DNA from: Solidesulfovibrio sp. | Lineage (GTDB): Bacteria > Desulfobacterota > Desulfovibrionia > Desulfovibrionales > Desulfovibrionaceae | Direction of reading: 5' to 3' | Assembly: GCF_029978005.1 (NCBI RefSeq) | Contig: NZ_JARKOZ010000123.1 | Coordinates: 3,210 to 67,209, forward strand | Length of the DNA stretch: 64,000 bases | Translations under genes and position numbers: made by a program | Notes under the pieces: model-generated | The model's input: only the letters and a program-made list of their open reading frames with translations | What the model was told of the DNA's origin: nothing | Database searches by the model: none | Shown: positions 50,714 to 63,334 of the stretch, in pieces | Position numbering within the stretch: position 1 is the stretch's first letter | Layout: each line of letters opens with the position of its first letter

Positions 50714-52216
50714 TCAATACTTGTAGGTGAAGCCCAGGGCGACCTTCCAGGAACCGCCCATGTCGTCGACTTTGTGGACCAGGCGGCGTCCCCAGACGCT
50801 CTCCTGGAAATCGCCCTTGGCCCAGCCGGTCTCCATGCGGATCTTGAGATTCTCGTAGAGGGAGTATTCGCTGTCGAGGTTCACGGCGAACTCGTGCTCG
50901 TTGCTGGTCAGGTCTCGGCCCATGCTGAAATACGGGTTGCTGCCGGCGTAGAGGTCGCCGGCGCCCAGGTAGTAGTTGAGGAAGCGCACGGCCTTGGGCG
51001 AGTTGTTGCCGTGGATGTAGGCGAAGGTCAGGGTGTTGGAGAGTTTTTCGACCAAGGAGATGTTCTTGAGCGACGCGGCCAGGCCGTAGGTGCCGACCGG
51101 ATCCACGCCCATGTTGGAGTTTCTGCCCAGCGCCTGGCCGCCGTCAAACAGGAACGAGCCGCCGCCGGGTCCCCAGGCCGGGCGGGAGTGGGGCATGCGC
51201 TCGGAGCCGTTCATGGTGGAGGAGTCCTCGCCGGTTCCCCACCAGGCGAAGAGTTGCGGCGTGAGCAGGTCCCAGCCGGTGAATTCCGTGCCGAAGTCGA
51301 TGAACCAGCCGCCGCGCTTGCTTTTCTTGCGGTCGTCCGTCGCGCCGCCGCCGTACATCACATCGGCGTAGAAGCGTACCGGATCCAGGGCGTTGACCTC
51401 GAACGCGCCGCCGCCCCAGTAATAGAGGTTCTGCTGGTTCTTCCATTTGGTCGGCGTGACCAGGGTGCCGGCGGACAGCAGGTCTTCGGCCACGGCGGCC
51501 TGGAAGAAGGTGGAAGCGTAGGTGGTGTAGAAGGCGGTGCCCTTGCCGGCCACGCCCAGGATGGCCCAGGGGGTCACCTTGAAGCCCGGCGTGGTCACGG
51601 GCAGGGTCAGGAAGTACCAGTCCAGTTCGTCGTCGGACTGGCTGGTGGTGGTGTCGTAGGTGCGGTTGGTGTCGATCATGCGGGCGAAGCCGGCGTTGAG
51701 CGAGAGGAGGTCCGGGATCAGCGGCGCGCGCACGGTCAGGGCGGCGGCCGTGTCGTCGAAGAGCAGACTGCCGGAGAAGATGGGGCTCTGGGGAAAGCTC
51801 AGGTCCTGCAGGCCGGCCGTGACCTCGACGTCGCAGCCCGGCCATTTGAATTGCAGGAAGGCCTGGTAGACCAGGATGCCGTTGGCGTCGGGGTTGGCCG
51901 CGGTGTAGGTGCCGTTGCCCCAGGCGTTGTCGATCTTGATGCCCAGGCGAAACTTCACGGCCTCGTTGGCCACGAAGTCCGTGCGCACGCGCAGGCGCTG
52001 CCAGACCTCGAAGGTGTCCTCGGTCTTGGTGCCGGCCTTGGTCCAGGTCGGCGTGTTGGACGTCCAGGCGCCGTTGTTCCAGCCGGTGAAGTTGTGGCCG
52101 CTGAAGTAGACGCCGTAGACGCGCGCGTCGCCGACGAACTTCACTTCCGTGGCCGCCCGGGCCGGACCGGCCGCCAGGACTATGGCCAGCAAGACAAACA
52201 CTGCGGCAAATCGCAT
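50714..52216 (-). CDS. Outer-membrane homotrimeric porin (Desulfovibrio type)
   Basis: Signal peptide, ATEVKFVGDARV, QRLRVRTDFVANEAVKFRLG, C-terminal GFTYKY beta-signal. Confidence 0.85.
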   Translation of the reverse strand: MRFAAVFVLLAIVLAAGPARAATEVKFVGDARVYGVYFSGHNFTGWNNGAWTSNTPTWTKAGTKTEDTFEVWQRLRVRTDFVANEAVKFRLGIKIDNAWGNGTYTAANPDANGILVYQAFLQFKWPGCDVEVTAGLQDLSFPQSPIFSGSLLFDDTAAALTVRAPLIPDLLSLNAGFARMIDTNRTYDTTTSQSDDELDWYFLTLPVTTPGFKVTPWAILGVAGKGTAFYTTYASTFFQAAVAEDLLSAGTLVTPTKWKNQQNLYYWGGGAFEVNALDPVRFYADVMYGGGATDDRKKSKRGGWFIDFGTEFTGWDLLTPQLFAWWGTGEDSSTMNGSERMPHSRPAWGPGGGSFLFDGGQALGRNSNMGVDPVGTYGLAASLKNISLVEKLSNTLTFAYIHGNNSPKAVRFLNYYLGAGDLYAGSNPYFSMGRDLTSNEHEFAVNLDSEYSLYENLKIRMETGWAKGDFQESVWGRRLVHKVDDMGGSWKVALGFTYKY

Positions 52217-52931
52217 CGTTCCTCCCTTCGTTACAGGTTGCGCAACAGCCGATTGACGTTCCCTTTTCTCGCATCCCGTCGGGATGTTTCTTGATGCCCA
52301 TGGTAGAAAAGCGCCCGGGGCGAGATCGCAAGAGAACACCCCCGGACACGTGCAGCAATGAAGCGGCAGTCCGCCCCCCGTAGCGGAATCCCGGATCGAA
52401 TTTGCTTATAGGTCGTCAACAACAGAGAACTGTTTGAATTTATGCCCAGCCGACTGACGGGCTTCAAGAGCATTTTCTGCAACCTGACTATACCGAAAAA
52501 GCATCATTGCCCCTGTCGGCCGAGAGGAAAGGCGGCTGTTGTTTGAAAGGTCTTCCCTGGATGTCGATTACTGCGTCGCCGCCTCGGAAGAGGCCTTGAA
52601 CCGCTCTGGGGCGCGGGGCATCGGCAACTCGGATCTGGGAGCGGGCGGGGCAGCCGTTCCAGCCATTGGACCGGAGTCGGCATTTGCCTCTCCGCGGGAA
52701 CAACGATAGAAACAGGTCGCAAGGTTATCCGCCGGCCGGATGCGCGAATACCCCGAGGCCTGCCCCGGCCGGCCGGGCGTGTCCCTCCCGGGGCGGCGCA
52801 GGTCGCGCTTGCCGGGCCGGCGGAATCGGGTGCGGCGCGGCCGGCGCGACGATCGCCCCTCTCCGCTTTGTGGGTCGAGGACCGAAACGAGGCGCTTTAT
52901 CCGGTCGCAGTCACCCCCGACACCCGACGGC

Positions 52932-54917
52932 ATGCGCATGATGAGCATTCTCCGGCCGATGCCGGCCGTCCTCCTGGCGCTTGCGCTCCTTGCCCCTGTC
53001 CTGGGATGCGCCCGGTCCTCCGACGAGACGCCCGGAGCCAGGAGGGGCGTGCTCGACCTTTCGGGGTGGGCTCCGACCCGCGACGGCCCGGTCGCCCTGG
53101 CCGGAGAGTGGGAATTCTATTGGGACCGCCTGCTCGCGCCGGAGGATTTCACGGCCGGCCTCGCGCCGCCGTCCGGGTACATGCGCTTTCCCGGCTTCTG
53201 GAAGGGACAGGCGCTTGACGGCCAGCCTTTGCCCGGCGAGGGGCAGGCCACCTTCCGCCTGCGCCTCGCACCCGGCACGGACGCCGGTCCGCTGGCCGTG
53301 CGCATCGTCGGCGTTTCCGCCGCCTACCGCTTGTGGGCCAACGGGAAGCTCGTCGCCGCAAGCGGCGTGGTGGGGGAAAGCGCCGCCACGGAAACCCCGC
53401 ACCGCTCCCTGGTCCTGGCCCGGTTCGAAAGCGACGGCTCCCCGGTCGAACTGGTGCTCCAGGTGTCCAACCACTATTACGGCCGGGGAGGCATGCAAAA
53501 TCCCCTCAGGCTGGGCCTGCCGGAGCAACTCGAAAAGGAGCACATCCGCATCTGGGCCTTCGCCATGTTCTTCGTCGGCAGCCTGCTGGTGATGACCGTG
53601 TATCACTTCGCCCTGTATTTCCTGAGGAAGAAGGACGCCTCGCCTCTGTATTTCGGCTTCGGCTGCCTGGTGATCATCGGCGTGTACGTGACGCTGGACG
53701 CGTCCGACTGGCTGGTCGAACTCTTCTTGCCCCAGGCCGATCCCCTGGTCGTCGGCAAAATCGCCCTCATCTGCTTCGCCGTCCTGGCCTCGGTGCTGTA
53801 CCGCTTTTACCGATCGCTCTATCCGGATGAGTTCATTGTATTCATCCAGTATGTCTGCGACATCAGGAGCGTGGTGTTTGTTTGCATCATCCTGACGCAG
53901 CCGGGCATCGTCATCTACGGCGCGATGCGTTGGCTGGCGGTCGTCACCATTTTCCTCAACGCCTGCTTTCTGGTCATGCTCGTCCTGTGTCTGAAGCATG
54001 GCCGCGACGGCGCACGGATTCTTTTTCTCGGCTACATTCTCTTGTCCGTAACCTCGCTGAGCGACATCTATCGGAATCTCTTCACCTTCAACACGATGCA
54101 CCTCCTGCCCGTCGGCATGCTCGCCTTCGTGCTGTCCCAGGCCCTGGCCATGGCCCAGCGTTTTTCCACGGCCTTCAAGTCGGTGGAAAACCTGTCCCAG
54201 GCCCTGGAGGCCAACAACGCCGTCCTGCTGGCGGAAATGGACGAACGCACCCGGTTGGAGCGGGAGATCGTCAACGTCAGCGAGGAGGAGCGCCGCCGCC
54301 TGAGCCACGATCTGCACGACGGCCTGTGCCAGCAGCTTTCCGGCGCGAGGTTGCGCTGCTCGGCCCTGGAGCGCCGATCCATCGCGGAACCGGGCGTGGC
54401 CGAGGAAGTTTCGGATCTTTCCCTGCTGCTGGAGGACTCGGTCAGCCAGGCCTACGACCTCTCCCGCGGGCTTTGGCCGGTGGAGCACGCTCTGGGGGAC
54501 GTCGGCCCGTCCCTGGCCGAGCTGGCGCGGCGCGTCGGCCAATCGAGCGGCGTGGAGGTCGCGTATCGCGAGGATCTGGGCTGCGCGCCTTGCCGCAACG
54601 AGCACCTCGTCCAGTTCTACCGCATCGCCCAGGAGGCGGTGGCCAACGCCGTCAAGCATGCCAGGCCCACCCGGATCGACATAACCTTGGCTTGCGGGCC
54701 GGACCGGCGACTGACCCTGGCCGTTCGCGACGACGGCGTCGGCCGCCGGGCGGCGCGGCCGACAGGAGGCGGACTGGGCCTGCGGATCATGGCCTATCGG
54801 GCCAGGATGATCGGGGCGGAGCTTTCCATAGACGACGGCGCGGCCGGCGGGACCGTGGTGTCCTGTTTCCTGGCCTGCGCCGCCGACGGGACAAGACAGG
54901 AGGGTGCCGATGAATGA
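52932..54917 (+). CDS. 7TM-DISM sensor histidine kinase (HisKA_3)
   Basis: GVLDLSGW...LAGEWEFYW extracellular domain, 7 TM segments, ERRRLSHDLHDGL, QEAVANAVKH, DDGVG, GLGL. Confidence 0.88.
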   Translation: MRMMSILRPMPAVLLALALLAPVLGCARSSDETPGARRGVLDLSGWAPTRDGPVALAGEWEFYWDRLLAPEDFTAGLAPPSGYMRFPGFWKGQALDGQPLPGEGQATFRLRLAPGTDAGPLAVRIVGVSAAYRLWANGKLVAASGVVGESAATETPHRSLVLARFESDGSPVELVLQVSNHYYGRGGMQNPLRLGLPEQLEKEHIRIWAFAMFFVGSLLVMTVYHFALYFLRKKDASPLYFGFGCLVIIGVYVTLDASDWLVELFLPQADPLVVGKIALICFAVLASVLYRFYRSLYPDEFIVFIQYVCDIRSVVFVCIILTQPGIVIYGAMRWLAVVTIFLNACFLVMLVLCLKHGRDGARILFLGYILLSVTSLSDIYRNLFTFNTMHLLPVGMLAFVLSQALAMAQRFSTAFKSVENLSQALEANNAVLLAEMDERTRLEREIVNVSEEERRRLSHDLHDGLCQQLSGARLRCSALERRSIAEPGVAEEVSDLSLLLEDSVSQAYDLSRGLWPVEHALGDVGPSLAELARRVGQSSGVEVAYREDLGCAPCRNEHLVQFYRIAQEAVANAVKHARPTRIDITLACGPDRRLTLAVRDDGVGRRAARPTGGGLGLRIMAYRARMIGAELSIDDGAAGGTVVSCFLACAADGTRQEGADE

Positions 54918-55545
54918 CGCCGCTGCATCCGGAACGCGTATTTTCCTGATCGACGACCACCCGGCCATGCGAAACGGCCTGTCGCTGCTGCTGCGCCAGG
55001 TCGGGCACACGGTCTGCGGCGAGGCCGGCTGCCGGCAGGAGCTCCTGGACCGCCTCGACGGTTCCGGGGCCGCCGTGGCCCTGGTGGATCTCTCCCTGGC
55101 CGAGGAATCCGGGCTGGACCTGATCGACGACCTGGCGGCCCGGGGCATTCCGGCGCTCATCTATTCCATGCACGAGGACCGGGGGACCATCGAGCGGGCC
55201 TTCGCCCGGGGAGCCCGGGGATACGTCGCCAAGCGCGAGGTCGCGGACGTGCTGCTCACGGCCATCGAGGCGGTCGCCGCCGGGGAGCGCTACGCCAGCC
55301 CCGGGGCCCTGCGCAGCCTGGCCGGTCGGGTCCTTTCCCCGTACGATGGCGAGGAGGCCGCCTTGAGCCGGCGCGAGGAGCAGATCCTGGACGGGCTGGG
55401 GCGCGGCGAAACGAGCGCCGAGATGAGCAGGTCGCTCAACATCAGCGCCCATACCGTGGAAACGTACTACGGCCGGCTGATCCGCAAGCTCGGGCTCTCC
55501 AGCATGAAGGAACTGCGCAAGTTCGCCATCCGCCGGCACGGCTGA
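54910..55545 (+). CDS. NarL/LuxR-family response regulator
   Basis: LIDDHP, VDLSL, GYVAK, LSRREEQI...TVETY HTH. Confidence 0.92.
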   Translation: MNDAAASGTRIFLIDDHPAMRNGLSLLLRQVGHTVCGEAGCRQELLDRLDGSGAAVALVDLSLAEESGLDLIDDLAARGIPALIYSMHEDRGTIERAFARGARGYVAKREVADVLLTAIEAVAAGERYASPGALRSLAGRVLSPYDGEEAALSRREEQILDGLGRGETSAEMSRSLNISAHTVETYYGRLIRKLGLSSMKELRKFAIRRHG

Positions 55546-55729
55546 GCTTTCGGCGACTTCTCCGTCGCCGACAGGCGCATCGACCGCTTCCACGTCTGTG
55601 CCGTCCCGGGGAACCGGACGGCCATCACCGCGCCCGGCTCCGGCTCGGGTCGTCTTCCGGCCCGGCCGAGGCGACCGTCGCCGCCGCCGCCCCCCCGTCC
55701 CTGCCCCGACCGTGCCTGCCGGCCTCGCC

Positions 55730-57427
55730 TCACGCTCCGGGCCGGACCTGGGGGGGCTGGCTCGGCAGCACCAGGTGGAACTCGACCCCGGGCGTATGGC
55801 GGCAACTGGCCGGGCGCGACGGCGTGCGGCAGAAGATGAAGCCGTCGTGGGCCTCGGCCACGAGCTTGCTGAAGGCCAGCCCCAGGCCGATGCCCCGCCG
55901 GCCCAGGCCCTCCTCTGTCTTGACCGTGAAGAACTTCTCGAAAATCGTTTCCTGGTAGGCTTCGGGCACGCCGAAGCCGGTGTCCGCGATCACCGTCCAG
56001 ACGTAGCTTTGGCCGTCGGCCAGCCGGCCCTTGTACTGCCGGGGCAGGTAGGGGCTCGCGGCGATGCAGCCGGCCGCGAGGCTGGCGGTGCTCACCTGGA
56101 TGTTGCCGCCGACGACGTTGTAGTTGATGGCGTTGGACAGGATGTTGCTGATGGTCCTTTTGATGCGGAACAGGTCGCAATGCAGGGTCAGGCGCTGGCC
56201 GTGCTGGAGGAAGCGGACGTCGAGCCCCTTCTCCTCGGCGAGCAGCGAGTGCTCCTCGATGCACTGGCTGATGATCTTGTTGATGTCGTAGTGGCTTTTG
56301 TGCAGCTCGAACCGGCCGTTCTCGTCGCGGAAGATGTCGAGGAAGGCGTTGACCATGCTGCCGAGCTGGTCGTTGGTGTTGCGCGCCAGCTTGAGGATCT
56401 TCTCCTGGTTGTCGCTGATCGGGCCCAGGCGTCCGGCGGCCAGGAGCTCCAGGGCCCGGTCGATGGCCAGGATGGGGTTTCGCATGTCGTGGGTGAGCAT
56501 GCCGACCAGGTCTTCCTTCATCTTGGCGATGCGCTTTTCCTCGGTGATGTCGCGCAGGATGGCCACGTAGCGCACGGCCTTGCCGGATTCGTCGTTGACC
56601 CGGGAGATGGAGATCTGCACGGGAAAGGGCGTCCTTTTGGCGGTCAGGGCCGTGAGCTCGAAGCGGAAGTTGTCCTGGCCGCCGTGTTCCAGGCTCGTTT
56701 TGTAGGCGGCAAGGACGTGCTGGTCCTGGACGAACCGCATGAGGGACTGGCCGCAGAAGTCGTTGAGGGAACAGCCGAAGACCTCGGCGCAGCGGTCGTT
56801 GCTCGTGTCGATGATGCAGTCCGTGTCCACCGAGATGATGCAGTCCGAGACGCTGTTGATGAGCTTGTTCAGGTATTCCTTGGATTGCAGGGAAAGCATG
56901 ATCCTTTGCAGGGCCATGTCGCTTATGGTCTGCGTGATGACGGACATGAGGTTGACGATCTTGCGCAGCCGCGCCCGCTTGACCTGCGGAATCCGGCGCA
57001 GGGCCTGCAAATAGCCGTCGATGTCCGTGACGCCGATGCGCGTGGCCCGGGCCACGGCGTCCTGGGCGGGGATGGAGCCCTCCAGAACCTGGCCGCCGTT
57101 GAGGTTGGCGATGTGCTGCCCGGCCACGATGATGGGCGTGGCGCAGTCCACCAGACCGGCGTTGAGGCAGTCGTAGACGTAGGGCTCCTTGGAGTCCAGG
57201 GACATGCGGCCGCCGTAGGCGTCGCTGGCGTAGCACCGGGCGCGGCCCTCGGCGGTGGCCCGGCAATAGTCCTTGCAAAACGAGCAGAAGTTGGACTCGC
57301 TGGAGATGGGGCGGCCTTCGGTGTCGGCGATGACCGAACCGATGCCGCAGGCCTCGTTGACGGCCTGGAGGATCTCGTCGAGCTTCTCCTTGGGGATGAG
57401 GTCCAGGAGCTGGATGGATTCTTTCAT
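55730..57427 (-). CDS. PocR-domain + PAS histidine kinase
   Basis: N-terminal SNFCSFC..CRAT..GRARCYASD...YDCLNAGLVDCATPII...GGQV (PocR-type sensor); PAS; H-box LTHDMRNP, NILSNAINY, DTGFG, GIGLGL. Confidence 0.9.
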   Translation of the reverse strand: MKESIQLLDLIPKEKLDEILQAVNEACGIGSVIADTEGRPISSESNFCSFCKDYCRATAEGRARCYASDAYGGRMSLDSKEPYVYDCLNAGLVDCATPIIVAGQHIANLNGGQVLEGSIPAQDAVARATRIGVTDIDGYLQALRRIPQVKRARLRKIVNLMSVITQTISDMALQRIMLSLQSKEYLNKLINSVSDCIISVDTDCIIDTSNDRCAEVFGCSLNDFCGQSLMRFVQDQHVLAAYKTSLEHGGQDNFRFELTALTAKRTPFPVQISISRVNDESGKAVRYVAILRDITEEKRIAKMKEDLVGMLTHDMRNPILAIDRALELLAAGRLGPISDNQEKILKLARNTNDQLGSMVNAFLDIFRDENGRFELHKSHYDINKIISQCIEEHSLLAEEKGLDVRFLQHGQRLTLHCDLFRIKRTISNILSNAINYNVVGGNIQVSTASLAAGCIAASPYLPRQYKGRLADGQSYVWTVIADTGFGVPEAYQETIFEKFFTVKTEEGLGRRGIGLGLAFSKLVAEAHDGFIFCRTPSRPASCRHTPGVEFHLVLPSQPPQVRPGA

Positions 57428-57494
57428 GGCGTTGCCGGACGTCTTCGGGCGAGGACGGCGGGGGAGCGCGGCCCCCGGGGACGGCCGGGCGGAC

Positions 57495-58142
57495 CTACGC
57501 GAACAGGCCGCTTTCCCGGGCGAGGATGGCCGCCTCGAACCTGCTGCTGACGTTGAGCTTCTTGAAGATGTTTTTGACGTGGGTCTTGACGGTCTGCACG
57601 CTCAGGTACAGGGCGTCGGAGATTTCCTTGTTGTTCTTGCCCTCGGAAACGAGCTTGAGGATCTGCTTTTCCCGGTGGGTGAGGCTGTCGAGGTCCCGGC
57701 CGGGAGCAGGGGGCTCGGTCTCCACGTCGGCGGACAGGTTGACAAGGTAGGGCGAGACGATGGGCCGGCCGGCGTGGAAGGCGGCGATGAGCCCGGCCAG
57801 GCCGTCGATGTCGATGGTCTTGAGCACGTAGCCGTCGGCCCCGGCCTTCATGGCGTCCTTGATGTAATTGGTGTCGTTGTAGGTGGAAAGGGCCAGGAGC
57901 TTCATGGCCGGAAAGGCCTTGCGCAGGACGCGGATGGCCGGAATGCCCGACAGCCCCGGCATGTCGATGTCGATGAGCGCCACGTCGGGCACGGTCTTCT
58001 GGATTTTTTCGATGGTCTCGAAGCCGTTGTCCGACTCGCCGACGATGGCGATGGTCTCGATGCCTTCGAAGGCCAGGCGCAGGCCGATGCGCAGCAAGGG
58101 ATGGTCGTCCGCGATAAACACCCTGATCGGCTGGATCTCCAT
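57495..58142 (-). CDS. NarL/LuxR-family response regulator
   Basis: IADDHP, IDIDMPG, GYVLKT, LTHREKQIL..VSEGKNNKEIS..TVKTHV. Confidence 0.93.
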   Translation of the reverse strand: MEIQPIRVFIADDHPLLRIGLRLAFEGIETIAIVGESDNGFETIEKIQKTVPDVALIDIDMPGLSGIPAIRVLRKAFPAMKLLALSTYNDTNYIKDAMKAGADGYVLKTIDIDGLAGLIAAFHAGRPIVSPYLVNLSADVETEPPAPGRDLDSLTHREKQILKLVSEGKNNKEISDALYLSVQTVKTHVKNIFKKLNVSSRFEAAILARESGLFA

Positions 58143-58260
58143 GCGCCGCCGTCCCTTTTCCTGGAGGGTTCCCGGATCGCGCCGCTCGCGCTTCGCTTCT
58201 TTTCCCGACCCTATACGCGGCATCCCTTTCCGTGTCGACAACGGCCCCCGGGCCGCCCGC

Positions 58261-59229
58261 TCAGCCGCCGATGGTGACCCGCACCGGGGAGCCCTCCAGG
58301 AGCGCCGCCAGGGCGACGACCTCCTCCCGGGCGTGAGGGGAGACGCCGCGCAGCGGGTAGTCCTTTTCGAGTTGCCCCCATTTCGGCTCGCCCATGCGGT
58401 GGTAGGGCAAAAGGTCCAGGGCCGCGACATGGGAAAGTTCGGCCGCGAAGGCGGCCGTGCGGCGCAGGTTTTCCGGCCCGTCGTTGAGCCCCGGAACGAG
58501 GGGGACGCGCACGCGGATGGGCAGGCCCAGGGCGTCCACGCGCCGGAGGTTGTCCAGGATGCGGGCGTTGTCCACGCCGGTCAGGCGGCGGTGCGCCTGC
58601 GGGTCCATGTGCTTGACGTCGTAAAGCACCGTGTCCAGGTGGGCCATGACCGGGAGCATGACCTCCCAGTCGGCGTAGCCGCTGGTTTCCACGGCGGTGT
58701 CGAGCCCCCGTGCCTTGGCCGCCCGGGCCAGGGCGAGCAGGAACCGGGGCTGGGCGAAGGGCTCGCCCCCGGAAAAGGTCACCCCGCCGCCGGAGCGGTC
58801 GTAGAACTCCCGGTCGAGCTCCACCTCCTCCAGCACCTCGTCCACGGTCAGGTGGCGGCCGCAGATGGTGATGGCGTTGGCGTAGCACACGGCTTGGCAG
58901 GCGCCGCACTCGGGCAGGCGGCAGGCCGCCTTGTCGATGGCCACGCCGTGGGGCCCGTCGGCCGTGATGCACCGGGCCGGGCAGGTCTCCAGGCACTTGC
59001 CGCAGCCGATGCAGTTGTTGCGGATGTAGAGGAGCTCCGGGCGCGGGAGCATGTCCTCGGGATTCTGGCACCACTGGCAGCGCAGGGGGCAGCCCTTTAA
59101 AAAGACGATGGTGCGGATGCCCGGGCCGTCGTGGATGGAGAACCGCTGAAAGTCGCTGACGAGCCCGACGGGCTCCCCGGCCTGGGCGGCCTTGGGCGCG
59201 TACAGCTGGAACCGCTTGCGTAACGTCAT
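58261..59229 (-). CDS. Glycyl-radical enzyme activating enzyme (radical SAM, ferredoxin-like insert)
   Basis: HDGPGIRTIVFLKGCPLRCQWCQNPE (CX3CX2C); CIGCGKCLETCP and CGACQAVC; GVTFSGGEP. Confidence 0.95.
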   Translation of the reverse strand: MTLRKRFQLYAPKAAQAGEPVGLVSDFQRFSIHDGPGIRTIVFLKGCPLRCQWCQNPEDMLPRPELLYIRNNCIGCGKCLETCPARCITADGPHGVAIDKAACRLPECGACQAVCYANAITICGRHLTVDEVLEEVELDREFYDRSGGGVTFSGGEPFAQPRFLLALARAAKARGLDTAVETSGYADWEVMLPVMAHLDTVLYDVKHMDPQAHRRLTGVDNARILDNLRRVDALGLPIRVRVPLVPGLNDGPENLRRTAAFAAELSHVAALDLLPYHRMGEPKWGQLEKDYPLRGVSPHAREEVVALAALLEGSPVRVTIGG

Positions 59230-59310
59230 GCCTGTCCGTGTTTCCTTGGCTTGGTGGCCCGGGGGAGCCGCCCGCCCGGGGCGGGCGGCTCCGAACCGAA
59301 GCCGTCGGGC

Positions 59311-61725
59311 TTAGAACATCTGCTCGGTGCGGGAGATGATGTCCTCCTGGATGGCCTGGTCCAGGGAGGTGAAGAACGCGCTGTAGCCGGCCACGCGCAC
59401 CACCAGCCCCCGGTAGTTTTCGGGATGCGCCTGGGCGTCCCGCAGGGTTTCCTTGTTGATGACGTTGTACTGGATGTGGGTGCCGCCGCCGTTGAAGAGC
59501 GTCTCGGTCACGGCGATGAGGTTGGAAATGCCCTGGCTGTCCTTGAGGGCGTTGGGGTGGAACTTCATGTTGAGCAGGGTGCCGTTGGAGGCGATGACGT
59601 GGTCGAGCTTGGTCACGGACTTGACCGAGGCCGTGGGGCCGGAGTGGTCCATGCCCGAGACCGGGGAGACGCCGTCGGCCAGGGGCGCGCCGGCCTTGCG
59701 GCCGTCCGGGGTCGCGCCGACCACCGCGCCGAGCGGCACGTTGGCCGAGACCGGATAGAGCCCGGGCTGGAAGCCGCCGCCCCGGGGGTTGGTGTATTTC
59801 TCCACCTCGCGGCAGTAGGCCAGGGCCGCCTCGTGGGCGATGTCGTCGGCGTAGGGCTCGTCGTTGCCGTACTTGGGGGCGCGGTTGAGCAGCATCTGGC
59901 GCAGGCTCTCGCCGGCAACCCCGGCGAAGTCGTCGGCCAGGGCCGCCTTGATCTCGGCCAGGGTCACGGCCTTGTCCTCGTAGACGAGCTTTTTGAGCGC
60001 CGCCAGGGAGTCGGCCACGTTGGCCACGCCCACGCCCTGGGGACCGGTGAAGTTGTAGTGCGCGCCGCCCTGCTGCAGGGACAGGCCCTTGGCGATGCAG
60101 TCGTCGACCAGGGAGGACAGGAAGGGCAGGGGGGCGCGCTGGCCGTGAGCCACGTCCACGGCGTTGTCCGAGATCACCAGCAGCTTGACGAAGTGGGCCA
60201 TCTGCTTGCGGTAGGCGGCCATGAGGTCGTCGTAGGTGGCGAGCGTGGTCAGCTCGCCGGTGCTCGGGCCCAGGCGTTCGCCGGAAAGCGGGTCCACGCC
60301 GTCGTTTATGGTCAGCTCCAGCACCTTGGCGATGTTGAAGAAGGCCGCGTCGTGCCAGCCCTCGGTCTTGCCGCCCACCTGGGGCTCCACGCAGCCGATG
60401 ATGCCGTAGTCGCGGGCGTCCTCGCGGGTCAGGCCGCGGCTTAAAAGCGCCGGGATGATGAACCGGTCGTTGTAGTAGGCCGGCATGCCGAGCCCCAGGC
60501 GCGTGACCTCGGCCGCCTTCTCGTACAGGGCGCGCGGCGTGTCGCTGTGGACGCGGATGGAGATGGAGGGCTGGTAGAGCTTGGTGTTGGCCGTGGCCTG
60601 CAGGCACATGTAGGACAGGGGGTTGGTGGCGTCCTCGCCCTCGCGGTCCACGCCGCCGACGATGAGGTTCTGGAACATGGGATAGCCGCCGAAGGCCTTG
60701 GTGGAGCCTTCGTCGCGCACCTTGTTGATCTCGTTGAACTTGATGAAGAGCAGGTCCAGGAGCTCCTGGGCCTTTTCGGCCGTGACGGCCTTGTCGGCGA
60801 GCAGGTGCGGGAACAGGTACTGGTCGAAGCGCATGGGCGAGATGGAGTGCCCGTTGGATTCGATCTGCAGGACGAGCTGGATGAACCAGAAGGACTGGAG
60901 GGCTTCGGCGAAGCTCCCGGCCGGCTCGGCCGGCACCTTGGCGCACACGCGGGCGATTTCCAGCAGTTCGGCCTTGCGGCCCGGGTCGGCCTCCGTGGCG
61001 GCCATGTCGGCGGCCAGGGCGGAAAAGCGGCCGGCGAAGCGGATGACGGCTTTGTTGGCGGCGGTCACGGCGGTCAGGAACTGGTGCTTGGCCAGGTGGG
61101 CCGGGTTGGTGAGCTCGAGCTTGGCCAGCTCGGCCTCGGCCGCGGCGACGACGCCCGAAAGGCCTTTTTCCAGGACCAGGGCATAGTCCACGCTGATGTG
61201 CCCCACGCCGTTGAAATAGTAGTTGCCCACGGTGAAAACGCCCCGGCGCTGGGCCTCCTTGCTTTCCGGGGTCATGAGCGCCGTGGCCAGCTCGTTGGTG
61301 GTGCGGCCGTTCCAGTAGGGGAAGAGTTCGCGCAGGACGGCTTTTTTCTCCTCGGAGATGAGGAACACGTCGCCGGTGCGCTTTTCCAGGCGGTCGAGCT
61401 CGTCCTCCAGCCATTTGCAGGAGAATTCCGGGAACACCGGGGCCGAGCGGGGCTTGGTGCACTGGTTGCCGACGATGATCTCGTCGGGCTGGATGAAGAT
61501 GGTCATGTTGTCGAGGATCTTCTCCAGGGCCCTGGCCCGGCGCAGGATCACGGGCTGGTCCTCGGTCTCCTTGTAGGCGGCGGTGACGAGCTGGGCCCGC
61601 TCCACGCAGATTTCCGGGACGACGGCGATGAACCGTTCCCGGATGGCCTCCACCCGGGCGGTGGGTCCGGGCAGCTGCAACACGTCGATCTTCTCGAGCA
61701 AGGCTTGTTCGGCTGGGCTTGTCAT
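59311..61725 (-). CDS. Glycyl radical enzyme, diol (1,2-propanediol/glycerol) dehydratase class
   Basis: 804 aa; GVGHISVDY, SNGHSISP, GCVEP, EGWHDAAFFN, GLYPVSANV, C-terminal glycyl motif RVAGYS; RBS AGGAGG. Confidence 0.9.
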   Translation of the reverse strand: MTSPAEQALLEKIDVLQLPGPTARVEAIRERFIAVVPEICVERAQLVTAAYKETEDQPVILRRARALEKILDNMTIFIQPDEIIVGNQCTKPRSAPVFPEFSCKWLEDELDRLEKRTGDVFLISEEKKAVLRELFPYWNGRTTNELATALMTPESKEAQRRGVFTVGNYYFNGVGHISVDYALVLEKGLSGVVAAAEAELAKLELTNPAHLAKHQFLTAVTAANKAVIRFAGRFSALAADMAATEADPGRKAELLEIARVCAKVPAEPAGSFAEALQSFWFIQLVLQIESNGHSISPMRFDQYLFPHLLADKAVTAEKAQELLDLLFIKFNEINKVRDEGSTKAFGGYPMFQNLIVGGVDREGEDATNPLSYMCLQATANTKLYQPSISIRVHSDTPRALYEKAAEVTRLGLGMPAYYNDRFIIPALLSRGLTREDARDYGIIGCVEPQVGGKTEGWHDAAFFNIAKVLELTINDGVDPLSGERLGPSTGELTTLATYDDLMAAYRKQMAHFVKLLVISDNAVDVAHGQRAPLPFLSSLVDDCIAKGLSLQQGGAHYNFTGPQGVGVANVADSLAALKKLVYEDKAVTLAEIKAALADDFAGVAGESLRQMLLNRAPKYGNDEPYADDIAHEAALAYCREVEKYTNPRGGGFQPGLYPVSANVPLGAVVGATPDGRKAGAPLADGVSPVSGMDHSGPTASVKSVTKLDHVIASNGTLLNMKFHPNALKDSQGISNLIAVTETLFNGGGTHIQYNVINKETLRDAQAHPENYRGLVVRVAGYSAFFTSLDQAIQEDIISRTEQMF

Positions 61726-62386
61726 GACGGCGTCCTCCTGATGACGTTGGATGCGCGGGAAACCCCTTTCGACGACGGGCGGCTCGCGGTCCCGGGCCCG
61801 GCGAGGAAAACCGTTCGGCGACGTCGAACGGGCGGATCGTCTTGGAATCCGATGTTTGCCCATTACGTCTTTTTCGCGGAGTCACTCTATCACCAAGAAG
61901 GGTGATTTTTCTCCCCCGGCCGTGGTATTTCGCGCCGCTTGCCGCCCTGTGCCCGCATTTTTCCATTAGGAACCGTGACAGGAATCCCGCCGGGCGGGGC
62001 CGTCCGACGGACGGCGGCCGCTCGCGGCGGCGACGCGCCCGGGCAGGCCGGGTCGCCGGTTCGCCCGGCAGCGTCGCCGCTGTCGCCCCTGGGGCGGGGC
62101 TGTCTGCGTCCCGAACATAGGAATTTATCGGTACGCAAATGTTCGCTGATTCGTCGTCGTCTGGCCGGGTGGCGACTTCGCGTGGAGAGGATTTCGATTG
62201 TGGCAAACTTTCTAAAGTTTCATGGAAATCGTGCGCCCTTCACGGCCTGTCGCCCAGGCGCGCCAGCCGGGGGGTGCGCCGTTTTCCTGGGGTACTATTG
62301 ACGTAATAGTTTTACAATTGTATCCAGAACGTCACCATACGAGCGTTCGCCGCCCGGTCCCGCGCCGACGGCAAGGGAGCTTGTCC

Positions 62387-63334
62387 ATGACCTGGCACGA
62401 TGAGAGCGAAAACCAGCTCATCTCCCGCGTCGCCTGGCTGTATTTCAACGAGGAGCTCACCCAGGCCGAAATCGGCGAACGGCTTGGCCTCACCCGCCTC
62501 AAGGTCAACCGCCTGCTCCAGGCCGGGCGCGAGGCCGGCCTCATCCGGGTCGTCATCAACACCGCCTTCAAGGACTGCGTGGAGCTCGAAGCCGGCCTCG
62601 TCCGGGAGTACGGCCTGGTGCGCGCCATCGTCGTGCCCACCCCCGAGCGCGGCGGGCTGCACTACTACGACGCCGTCGGCCGGCCGGCCGGCGAATACGC
62701 CTCCCTGCAACTGCGCGACGGGCAGCGCTTCGGCGTGGGCTGGGGCTACACCATGCGCGCCGCCATAAACGGCATGGTCAGCCGGACCGTGCGCGGCGTC
62801 TCCGTGACCTCGCTCTACGGCGGCGTCCCCAGAAGCCCGGTCAACCCCTTCGACTCCACGGCCATGTTCGCCCGAAAGCTCCAGGCCGAGGTCTGCAACC
62901 ACCTGCCCGCGCCCATGTTCGTCTCCACCCCGGAGGTGCGCGAGACCATCGCCGCCCAGCCCTTTTTCCGCACCTTCTACCAGGAAGCCCTGGATGTGGA
63001 CATGATCCTGACGGCCGTGGGCGACATCTCCGCCCAGGCCACCAACATCGCGCTGGGGGCCATCACCCAGGACCAGCGCCGCGACCTGGCCCGGGCCGGG
63101 GCCGTGGGCGAATTCTTCGGCCGCTTCCTGGACGCGGCGGGAAACGTGGTGGACCACGAGGTCAACCGTTGCAGCATGTCCCCGGATTTCGCCGGGCTGT
63201 GCAAGGTCCCCCACATCGTCCTGGTCTCCGGGGGCATGGCCAAGACGCCCATACTGCAAGCCGTGCTGCGGCGCGGCTACGTCCACGTGTGCGTCACGGA
63301 CGCGGGCACGGCCGCCAGCCTGCTCAACGTTTAG
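62387..63334 (+). CDS. SorC/DeoR-like sugar-binding transcriptional regulator
   Basis: VAWLYFNEELTQAEIGERLGLTRLKVNRLL HTH; GVGWGYT; LPAPMFV; GAVGEFFG; TDAGTA. Confidence 0.92.
   Translation: MTWHDESENQLISRVAWLYFNEELTQAEIGERLGLTRLKVNRLLQAGREAGLIRVVINTAFKDCVELEAGLVREYGLVRAIVVPTPERGGLHYYDAVGRPAGEYASLQLRDGQRFGVGWGYTMRAAINGMVSRTVRGVSVTSLYGGVPRSPVNPFDSTAMFARKLQAEVCNHLPAPMFVSTPEVRETIAAQPFFRTFYQEALDVDMILTAVGDISAQATNIALGAITQDQRRDLARAGAVGEFFGRFLDAAGNVVDHEVNRCSMSPDFAGLCKVPHIVLVSGGMAKTPILQAVLRRGYVHVCVTDAGTAASLLNV

Follow-up and report, generated by a model that had tools for sequence, protein, structure and literature searches.

We analysed a 64,000-nucleotide stretch of the genome of a Solidesulfovibrio sp. 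(hereafter the window: C37:3210-67209 of a 4.82 Mb assembly of 224 contigs, 67.5% G+C, 96.3% complete, its DNA coming from a wastewater metagenome), focusing on a cassette of four genes: a glycyl radical enzyme (GRE), its activase, a response regulator and a sensor kinase with an N-terminal PocR domain. On balance, we read the cassette as a self-contained, substrate-inducible operon for a B12-independent dehydratase of vicinal diols that works without encapsulation in a bacterial microcompartment (BMC). As for the substrate, the pocket residues incline us towards 1,2-propanediol and/or ethylene glycol, with propionaldehyde or acetaldehyde as the products. An earlier note, made from the sequence of the window, had described the four genes as co-oriented and as a stand-alone diol-sensing module in a probable sulfate reducer. 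All four genes indeed lie on the minus strand:

59311-61725, minus strand: GRE of the diol-dehydratase subfamily, 804 amino acids (Pfam and NCBIfam matches, PDB alignments, homologue length, residue table and tree)
58261-59229, minus strand: GRE-activating radical-SAM enzyme, 322 amino acids (TIGR02494, Radical_SAM and Fer4 domains, Cys positions)
57495-58142, minus strand: NarL/LuxR-family response regulator, 215 amino acids (Pfam Response_reg and GerE, start-codon analysis)
55730-57427, minus strand: PocR-PAS-HisKA-HATPase_c sensor kinase, 565 amino acids (Pfam, hydropathy, H-box)

The GRE matches the PFL-like (PF02901, 822 bits) and Gly_radical (PF01228, 118 bits) domains and clears the cut-off of TIGR01774, the PFL2/diol-dehydratase subfamily (889 against 678 bits), scoring under all NCBIfam equivalog cut-offs. 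Its reading frame is open to 61863; we place the start at the ATG at 61725 since this codon is preceded by a good ribosome-binding site (AGGAGG) and the close homologues are all 804 amino acids long. The nearest named homologues are from Solidesulfovibrio sp. (90%), Desulfovibrio sp. TomC (87%) and S. magneticus (68%). The glycyl-radical site is Gly780 in RVAGY, the Cys loop GCVEP carries Cys445 and Glu447, and the further key residues are His176, Ser294, Asp459 and Tyr657. As judged by alignment, the protein holds the full catalytic set of GRE 1,2-eliminases: Cys445, Glu447, His176, Ser294 and Asp459 line up with C433, E435, H164, S282 and D447 of the glycerol dehydratase (GD). The activase gene starts 81 nt past the GRE stop; its product scores 349.5 bits with TIGR02494 (cut-off 174) and has a CX3CX2C motif (Cys47/51/54) and two ferredoxin-like Cys clusters. 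The core of the earlier reading, a stand-alone and B12-independent dehydratase module under PocR control in a sulfate reducer, is supported; the guess about the organism's metabolism was right as well, since the genome has dsrAB. A search for B12-dependent diol dehydratases found none in 25 genomes of the genus, with a positive control elsewhere in the family scoring 1066 bits.

To place the GRE we used a maximum-likelihood tree with 96 relatives (quick search). The enzyme falls into a clade of 29 rows (clade B, SH-aLRT 99), with members from Desulfovibrionaceae, Geobacteraceae and Anaerolineae and no characterised enzyme among them. A second well-supported clade (clade C), apart from clade B, unites the Clostridium glycerol-dehydratase type with GRM3-like and GRM5-like enzymes, the GD-type rows being nested inside it beside the GRM3-like ones. 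We compared the pocket at the three positions at which GD differs from both solved propanediol dehydratases. These are Tyr339/Ser448/Ser642 in GD and Phe344/Ala/Val696 in the propanediol dehydratases; the window GRE has Phe351/Ala460/Val659, and its active-site signature, HSFCEDAYV, is the same in 5I2A (Roseburia inulinivorans GRM5) and in 9RCO, the GRM3 propanediol dehydratase of Raoultella planticola (PMC12756279). The Y/S/S pocket is found in just two of 76 relatives, both from Clostridium dha-type loci (L087 and L089). Propanediol-type enzymes bound glycerol only at 1.5 M (PMC12756279), and the GRM3 enzyme of Rhodopseudomonas palustris gave no product from glycerol (PMC5311937). It is because of F351/A460/V659 that 1,2-propanediol or ethylene glycol is the likeliest substrate.

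The substrate assignment has to be weighed against the surroundings of the cassette, which is flanked by genes on the opposite strand:

62222-63334, plus strand: SorC/DeoR-type regulator, head of the divergent glp block; a neighbour, outside the cassette (Pfam)
52740-54917 and 54904-55545, plus strand: 7TMR-DISM histidine kinase and LuxR regulator, the pair flanking the cassette on the other side

The glp block continues on the plus strand with glpD from 63348, then glpF and glpK past the window end, up to the end of the contig. A possible but less probable reading is that the GRE is a glycerol dehydratase working like DhaB1/DhaB2, making 3-hydroxypropionaldehyde for a reductive or 3-hydroxypropionate branch alongside an oxidative branch of glpD-glpF-glpK and a DhaT-like iron-type alcohol dehydrogenase (Fe-ADH). 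Several observations favour this reading and thus count against propanediol or ethylene glycol. The best PDB match of the GRE is the B12-independent glycerol dehydratase of C. butyricum (1R8W, 998 bits), ahead of 9RCO (893 bits) and 5I2A (892 bits). The operon stands back to back with SorC-glpD-glpF-glpK both here and in a 95%-identical relative (L053/G208). The orthologous TomC-type operons contain a MIP channel that is 87-89% identical to the GlpF encoded next to the window cassette, and a glpF-like channel gene is likewise found within the Geobacteraceae operons. Our comparison covers three pocket positions, in a clade that has no solved structure. Finally, glycerol fermentation has been reported for S. 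fructosovorans and S. carbinolicus (PMC11252210); as our searches of the genus returned no B12-dependent dehydratase, glycerol may be the substrate of some clade-B GRE.

Set against this are the residues themselves, all three of the propanediol type and forming a pocket that in characterised enzymes effectively keeps glycerol out, and the position of the GRE outside the clade of the Clostridium glycerol dehydratases; on the strength of tree and pocket residues we rejected orthology with the C. butyricum enzyme, which the PDB match and the glp neighbours had first suggested. Furthermore, the glp adjacency is lineage-specific, being absent in Solidesulfovibrio sp. DCME, in G115, in the TomC-type genomes and in Geobacteraceae. 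GlpF-type channels let propanediol through too and are not selective between propanediol and glycerol. S. alcoholivorans reportedly makes some propionate from 1,2-propanediol, which would fit the propanediol assignment.

The Fe-ADH invoked for the reductive branch lies just past glpK, outside the window. In L053 its gene is contiguous and convergent with glpK; in our assembly it sits at the start of contig C115. Its best PDB match is the K. pneumoniae DhaT, albeit a weak one (189 bits), and it is 40% identical to a Clostridium DhaT-type alcohol dehydrogenase, which again speaks for glycerol. However, the gene moves with the glp block and not with the GRE: G207 and G204 have the SorC-glpD-glpF-glpK block elsewhere, away from the GRE operon, and in G207 the Fe-ADH gene lies with that block, far from the GRE. 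The Fe-ADH therefore belongs to the glp unit, and we rejected it as the cassette's missing dhaT. The earlier statement that aldehyde and alcohol dehydrogenases are lacking between the flanking pair and the glp genes stands, with the correction that just outside the window the Fe-ADH is present as part of the glp block. The ends of C37 (~67370-67500, outside the window) and C115 (1-230) share a ~30-bp inverted repeat, CCTAGTGTYGCGTCCT...; past the repeat, a transposase-like open reading frame (ORF) starts at one of the ends and an ORF stops at the other. The assembly was probably interrupted here by an IS element located between glpK and the Fe-ADH gene.

An action on another small substrate sensed by the PocR kinase (a longer 1,2-diol, 2,3-butanediol, an amino or a sulfo alcohol) seems improbable to us. 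It would sit well with a clade lacking any characterised member, with the score under all equivalog cut-offs and with two paralogues of the GRE, each with its own PocR system, occurring together in G207 and G214 (see below). Yet the catalytic and pocket residues are the same as in propanediol dehydratases, we noted no basic residues at the compared sites of the kind that a sulfonate or carboxylate group would need, and MIP channels are the only linked transporters seen in the relatives.

Four further GREs are encoded in the genome (C30:7656-10484, C203:61236-64217, C176:1783-4308 and C28:11254-13893; loci L021, L022, L019 and L020). Two of these exceed the cut-off for 4-hydroxyphenylacetate decarboxylase (1555 and 1466 bits), and a third may be a sulfonate lyase, as suggested by its neighbours: its own activase, a sulfite exporter of the TauE type and a sigma-54 activator of the PrpR type. 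The fourth is without an assignment.

Turning to the regulatory half of the cassette, the kinase consists of a PocR domain (residues 9-172; PF10114, 158.6 bits, cut-off 23.9), a PAS domain (195-296), HisKA with His313, and HATPase_c. It has no transmembrane segment (hydropathy maximum 1.32) and is therefore taken to be a cytoplasmic sensor. The response regulator combines a REC domain, with Asp58 as the predicted phospho-acceptor, with a GerE helix-turn-helix; we set its start at the ATG at 58142 and not at 58430, the first ATG of the ORF (the L008 orthologue has 219 amino acids).

The association of GRE and PocR is conserved. Among 201 sampled Desulfovibrionaceae genomes, 14 of the 14 GRE matches with at least 64% identity have a PocR gene within ~3 kb; this co-location is beyond chance, and the coupling of a PocR two-component system to the GRE that the earlier note had proposed is thereby supported. 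The loci come in two wirings. In B1, the window type, which is also found in Geobacteraceae, the order is GRE, activase, (MIP), NarL regulator, PocR/PAS kinase. In B2, the S. magneticus type, a divergent PocR/PAS kinase and a sigma-54 NtrC-type regulator precede the HbpS-like, GRE and activase genes. Pocket position 659 is V in B1 and A in B2. B1 occurs in 10 of 25 genomes of the genus and B2 in six; two genomes (G207, including loci L139 and L146 on G207:C1, and G214) have both, and the presence in one genome of two paralogues, each with its own PocR system, suggests that they respond to different ligands. The B1 four-gene set recurs with differing neighbours in Solidesulfovibrio sp. DCME (kdp genes to one side, a DUF1254 gene to the other), in G115/L054 and in Geobacteraceae: the cassette moves as one unit. 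In total, the PocR domain is joined to three different output types beside this GRE family. In the TomC-type B1 operons, a recent glpF duplicate stands between the activase and the regulator.

Could the two-component system be a mere neighbour with no control over the GRE genes? A second, orphan PocR-PAS-HisKA kinase in the same genome (C98:24823-26760; L018:9824-11761), placed beside a P-type cation ATPase and FtsY, would be in keeping with this view. We consider it very unlikely, given that the PocR linkage extends over two gene orders and three regulator families, that the four genes travel jointly between genomic contexts and that contigs in two RNA libraries span the four genes with almost nothing of the flanks. 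We examined the C98 kinase as part of a diol locus and discarded it, as no partner regulator or diol gene is nearby.

Two features upstream of the GRE bear on how the operon may be expressed:

61882-61931, minus strand: conserved 45-50-bp element AATACC..GRGGG..CNCNC..GGNGATRG, ending in TGATAGAGT (alignment, position weight matrix (PWM), metatranscriptome ends)
61811-61831, minus strand: GC-rich hairpin with a T-run behind it, within the GRE mRNA leader of ~145 nt (terminator-like scan)

Aligned without gaps across six B1 loci (Desulfovibrionaceae and Geobacteraceae) that differ strongly in G+C content, the element shows 19 invariant columns, with no conservation in its flanks. It is located 185-237 nt upstream of the GRE start in the six B1 loci and about 160-205 nt upstream of the GRE gene in the window; TGATAGAGT at its end resembles an extended -10. 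Contigs of a 95-97%-identical relative, from two metatranscriptome assemblies, span 56622-61868; their upstream ends, at 61868 and 61853, are just downstream of the element. These are assembled contigs, so that the ends are approximate and DNA carry-over is possible, and their origin from a relative rather than from reads of this organism counts against the operon reading. A sigma-70 consensus scan found no promoter. Judging by its conservation and position, we read the element as the putative promoter of the operon, combined with a putative operator for the response regulator.

Across the genome, the PWM of the element returned one site, the operon's own (64.7 bits); the next best, at 23.6 bits, is AT-rich noise. 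On this result we rejected a wider regulon with co-regulated aldehyde enzymes. We also discounted a riboswitch or RNA leader, as the element has no Rfam match and no RNA covariation (RNAalifold -3.8 kcal/mol) and the RNA contigs start downstream of it. The leader hairpin may act in attenuation or as a stabiliser; judged by eye, its stem seems to be preserved in L053 through paired changes.

The window contains no microcompartment genes, as the earlier note had stated: the interval from the 7TMR-DISM pair (52740-55545) to the glp genes (from 62222) is free of genes for BMC proteins, aldehyde dehydrogenases and alcohol dehydrogenases. A search of the whole assembly (96.3% complete) with the shell domain PF00936 was likewise empty, no BMC shell gene turned up in six sampled genomes of the genus, and no tblastn BMC match lies within 10 kb of any B1 locus. 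Where the note had seen in the stand-alone GRE an exception to the usual BMC loci, the lack of a BMC stood, and the exception did not: it is no anomaly, as the Clostridium dha archetype precedes it. In clade B, lacking a microcompartment is the normal condition.

Shell genes are found in 57 of the 201 family genomes, mostly beside CutC-like or propanediol-dehydratase-like GREs that carry an inter-domain insert. This insert, of 32-63 amino acids elsewhere and corresponding to residues ~600-605 of the window GRE, has a length of 0 in the window GRE in an alignment of 96 GREs. Counting only loci with full flanks, 21 of the 26 with an insert have BMC genes within 10 kb (five do not), as compared to two of the 13 without it (11 do not); put the other way, 21 of 23 BMC-linked loci have it. 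The insert thus tracks BMC association, which agrees with its proposed role as an internal encapsulation peptide (Zarzycki et al.; reported in GRM3 GREs, PMC5311937). The closest approach is that of a B2 locus to a shell cluster 8 kb away, a cluster that is part of the locus of a CutC-like GRE next door. The B2 cassette of Maridesulfovibrio-like genomes directly adjoins a microcompartment locus of a CutC-like GRE (G153:C9:475516-497210; L137, L060), and one radical enzyme is free there and the other encapsulated.

Enzymes that could take up an aldehyde are encoded elsewhere in the genome: nine Fe-ADH, five aldehyde dehydrogenase, one GldA-like and four AOR-type aldehyde:ferredoxin oxidoreductase genes. 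None of the nine Fe-ADHs gave a DhaT-specific match against NCBIfam.

The mechanism that we propose would run as follows. The soluble PocR-PAS kinase would sense a small diol in the cytoplasm and pass a phosphoryl group from His313 to Asp58 of the NarL-type regulator. The regulator would then act at the conserved upstream element and turn on the GRE, activase, regulator and kinase genes jointly; as regulator and kinase would be induced as well, this would create positive feedback. The activase, with S-adenosylmethionine, would generate the radical on Gly780, Cys445 would take a hydrogen from C1 of the diol, and Glu447 and His176 would aid the loss of the C2 hydroxyl to yield the aldehyde. The latter would presumably be handled by unlinked cytoplasmic enzymes, such as the four AOR-type, five aldehyde dehydrogenase and nine Fe-ADH gene products, with no microcompartment involved.

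Several observations concern the surroundings of the operon and the assembly as a whole. The 7TMR-DISM/LuxR pair (52505-55710) is a 3.2-kb insertion as compared to the 95%-identical L053, in which only ~530 bp separate the same flanks. A minus-strand ORF of 541 amino acids (50714-52339) has gene-like codon bias (GC3 0.89) and no Pfam match. The metagenome-assembled genome has two full dsrAB loci (C177:31362-33788 and C69:2077-4509; dsrA 625 and 605 bits) at an estimated contamination of 4%; the doubling could be a true duplication, strain mixing or contamination.

On a more tentative note, clade B may form a lineage of its own, made up of 1,2-propanediol/ethylene-glycol dehydratases that are non-encapsulated by nature, and may provide the enzyme long sought for the diol dehydratase activities of alcohol-degrading Desulfovibrio, with B1 (V659, NarL-type) and B2 (A659, sigma-54, HbpS-like) each using its own PocR sensor to tell diols apart; we offer this as a conjecture. 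If true, a radical dehydratase that produces an aldehyde can do without a microcompartment where the cell is rich in aldehyde:ferredoxin oxidoreductases. The module itself supplies candidate genes for conversions of diols and glycerol that were reported decades ago from Solidesulfovibrio species (then Desulfovibrio), the genus in which we found no B12-dependent dehydratase. Having the same pocket without shell genes or insert, it is a natural point of comparison when asking why encapsulation is usual among propanediol dehydratases, and the compact, probably single-operon PocR two-component circuit with its defined candidate operator could be used to study PocR ligands.

How does the module compare with known systems? 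The closest in layout is the 1,3-propanediol operon of Clostridium butyricum, given as dhaS-dhaA-dhaB1-dhaB2-dhaT in the account of Raynaud 2003 cited in PMC4207490; Axen et al. describe a PocR-domain two-component system at the Clostridium 1,3-propanediol operon (PMC4207490). The two Clostridium dha loci among our relatives (L087 from Ca. Clostridium helianthi and L089 from C. massiliodielmoense) encode DhaK, a PocR-His_kinase protein, a REC-AraC regulator, the GRE, its activase, (an HbpS-like protein) and an Fe-ADH, with no BMC genes. As in the window, a GRE dehydratase and its activase are placed under a two-component system with a PocR domain at the N-terminus of the kinase, there is no microcompartment and no inter-domain insert in the GRE, and the catalytic Cys, Glu, His, Asp and Gly are the same. 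The differences are as follows: the kinase core is His_kinase (PF06580) in Clostridium and PAS-HisKA here; the regulator is REC-AraC there and NarL/LuxR here; the two-component genes are upstream there and downstream here; and dhaT, the HbpS-like gene and dhaK are part of the locus there and absent here. Unlike the Clostridium dhaT operon, neither the window cassette nor L008, L054 or the TomC-type operons include an alcohol dehydrogenase. The PocR domains of the Clostridium dha and window kinases are 27% identical, the pocket is Y339/S448/S642 there and F/A/V here, and the GREs belong to different clades.

With the GRM5 (Roseburia inulinivorans, 5I2A) and GRM3 (Raoultella planticola, 9RCO; Rhodopseudomonas palustris) systems the window GRE shares the active-site signature and the F344/V696-type pocket, as well as a cognate activase of the same kind, and PocR-domain regulators are known from some GRM loci (PMC4207490). 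However, the GRM3 and GRM5 loci have shell proteins, aldehyde dehydrogenase, PduL etc., whereas the window cassette has neither BMC genes nor a linked aldehyde enzyme; 5I2A carries a ~50-amino-acid inter-domain insertion relative to the window GRE; and the window GRE falls in a sister clade. The Salmonella pdu system likewise couples a PocR sensory domain to diol catabolism, but it does so with PocR as a one-component AraC regulator, a B12-dependent dehydratase and an encapsulated pathway; the window module differs on all three counts. By analogy, then, the module would operate on the Clostridium dha principle, a free GRE dehydratase under the control of a PocR two-component system, using an active site that resembles those of the BMC-bound propanediol dehydratases; as judged by clade, pocket and locus, it belongs to neither the Clostridium dha nor the GRM3/GRM5 group. 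Its architecture is not a new kind of system: it is real, conserved and has a precedent in Clostridium.

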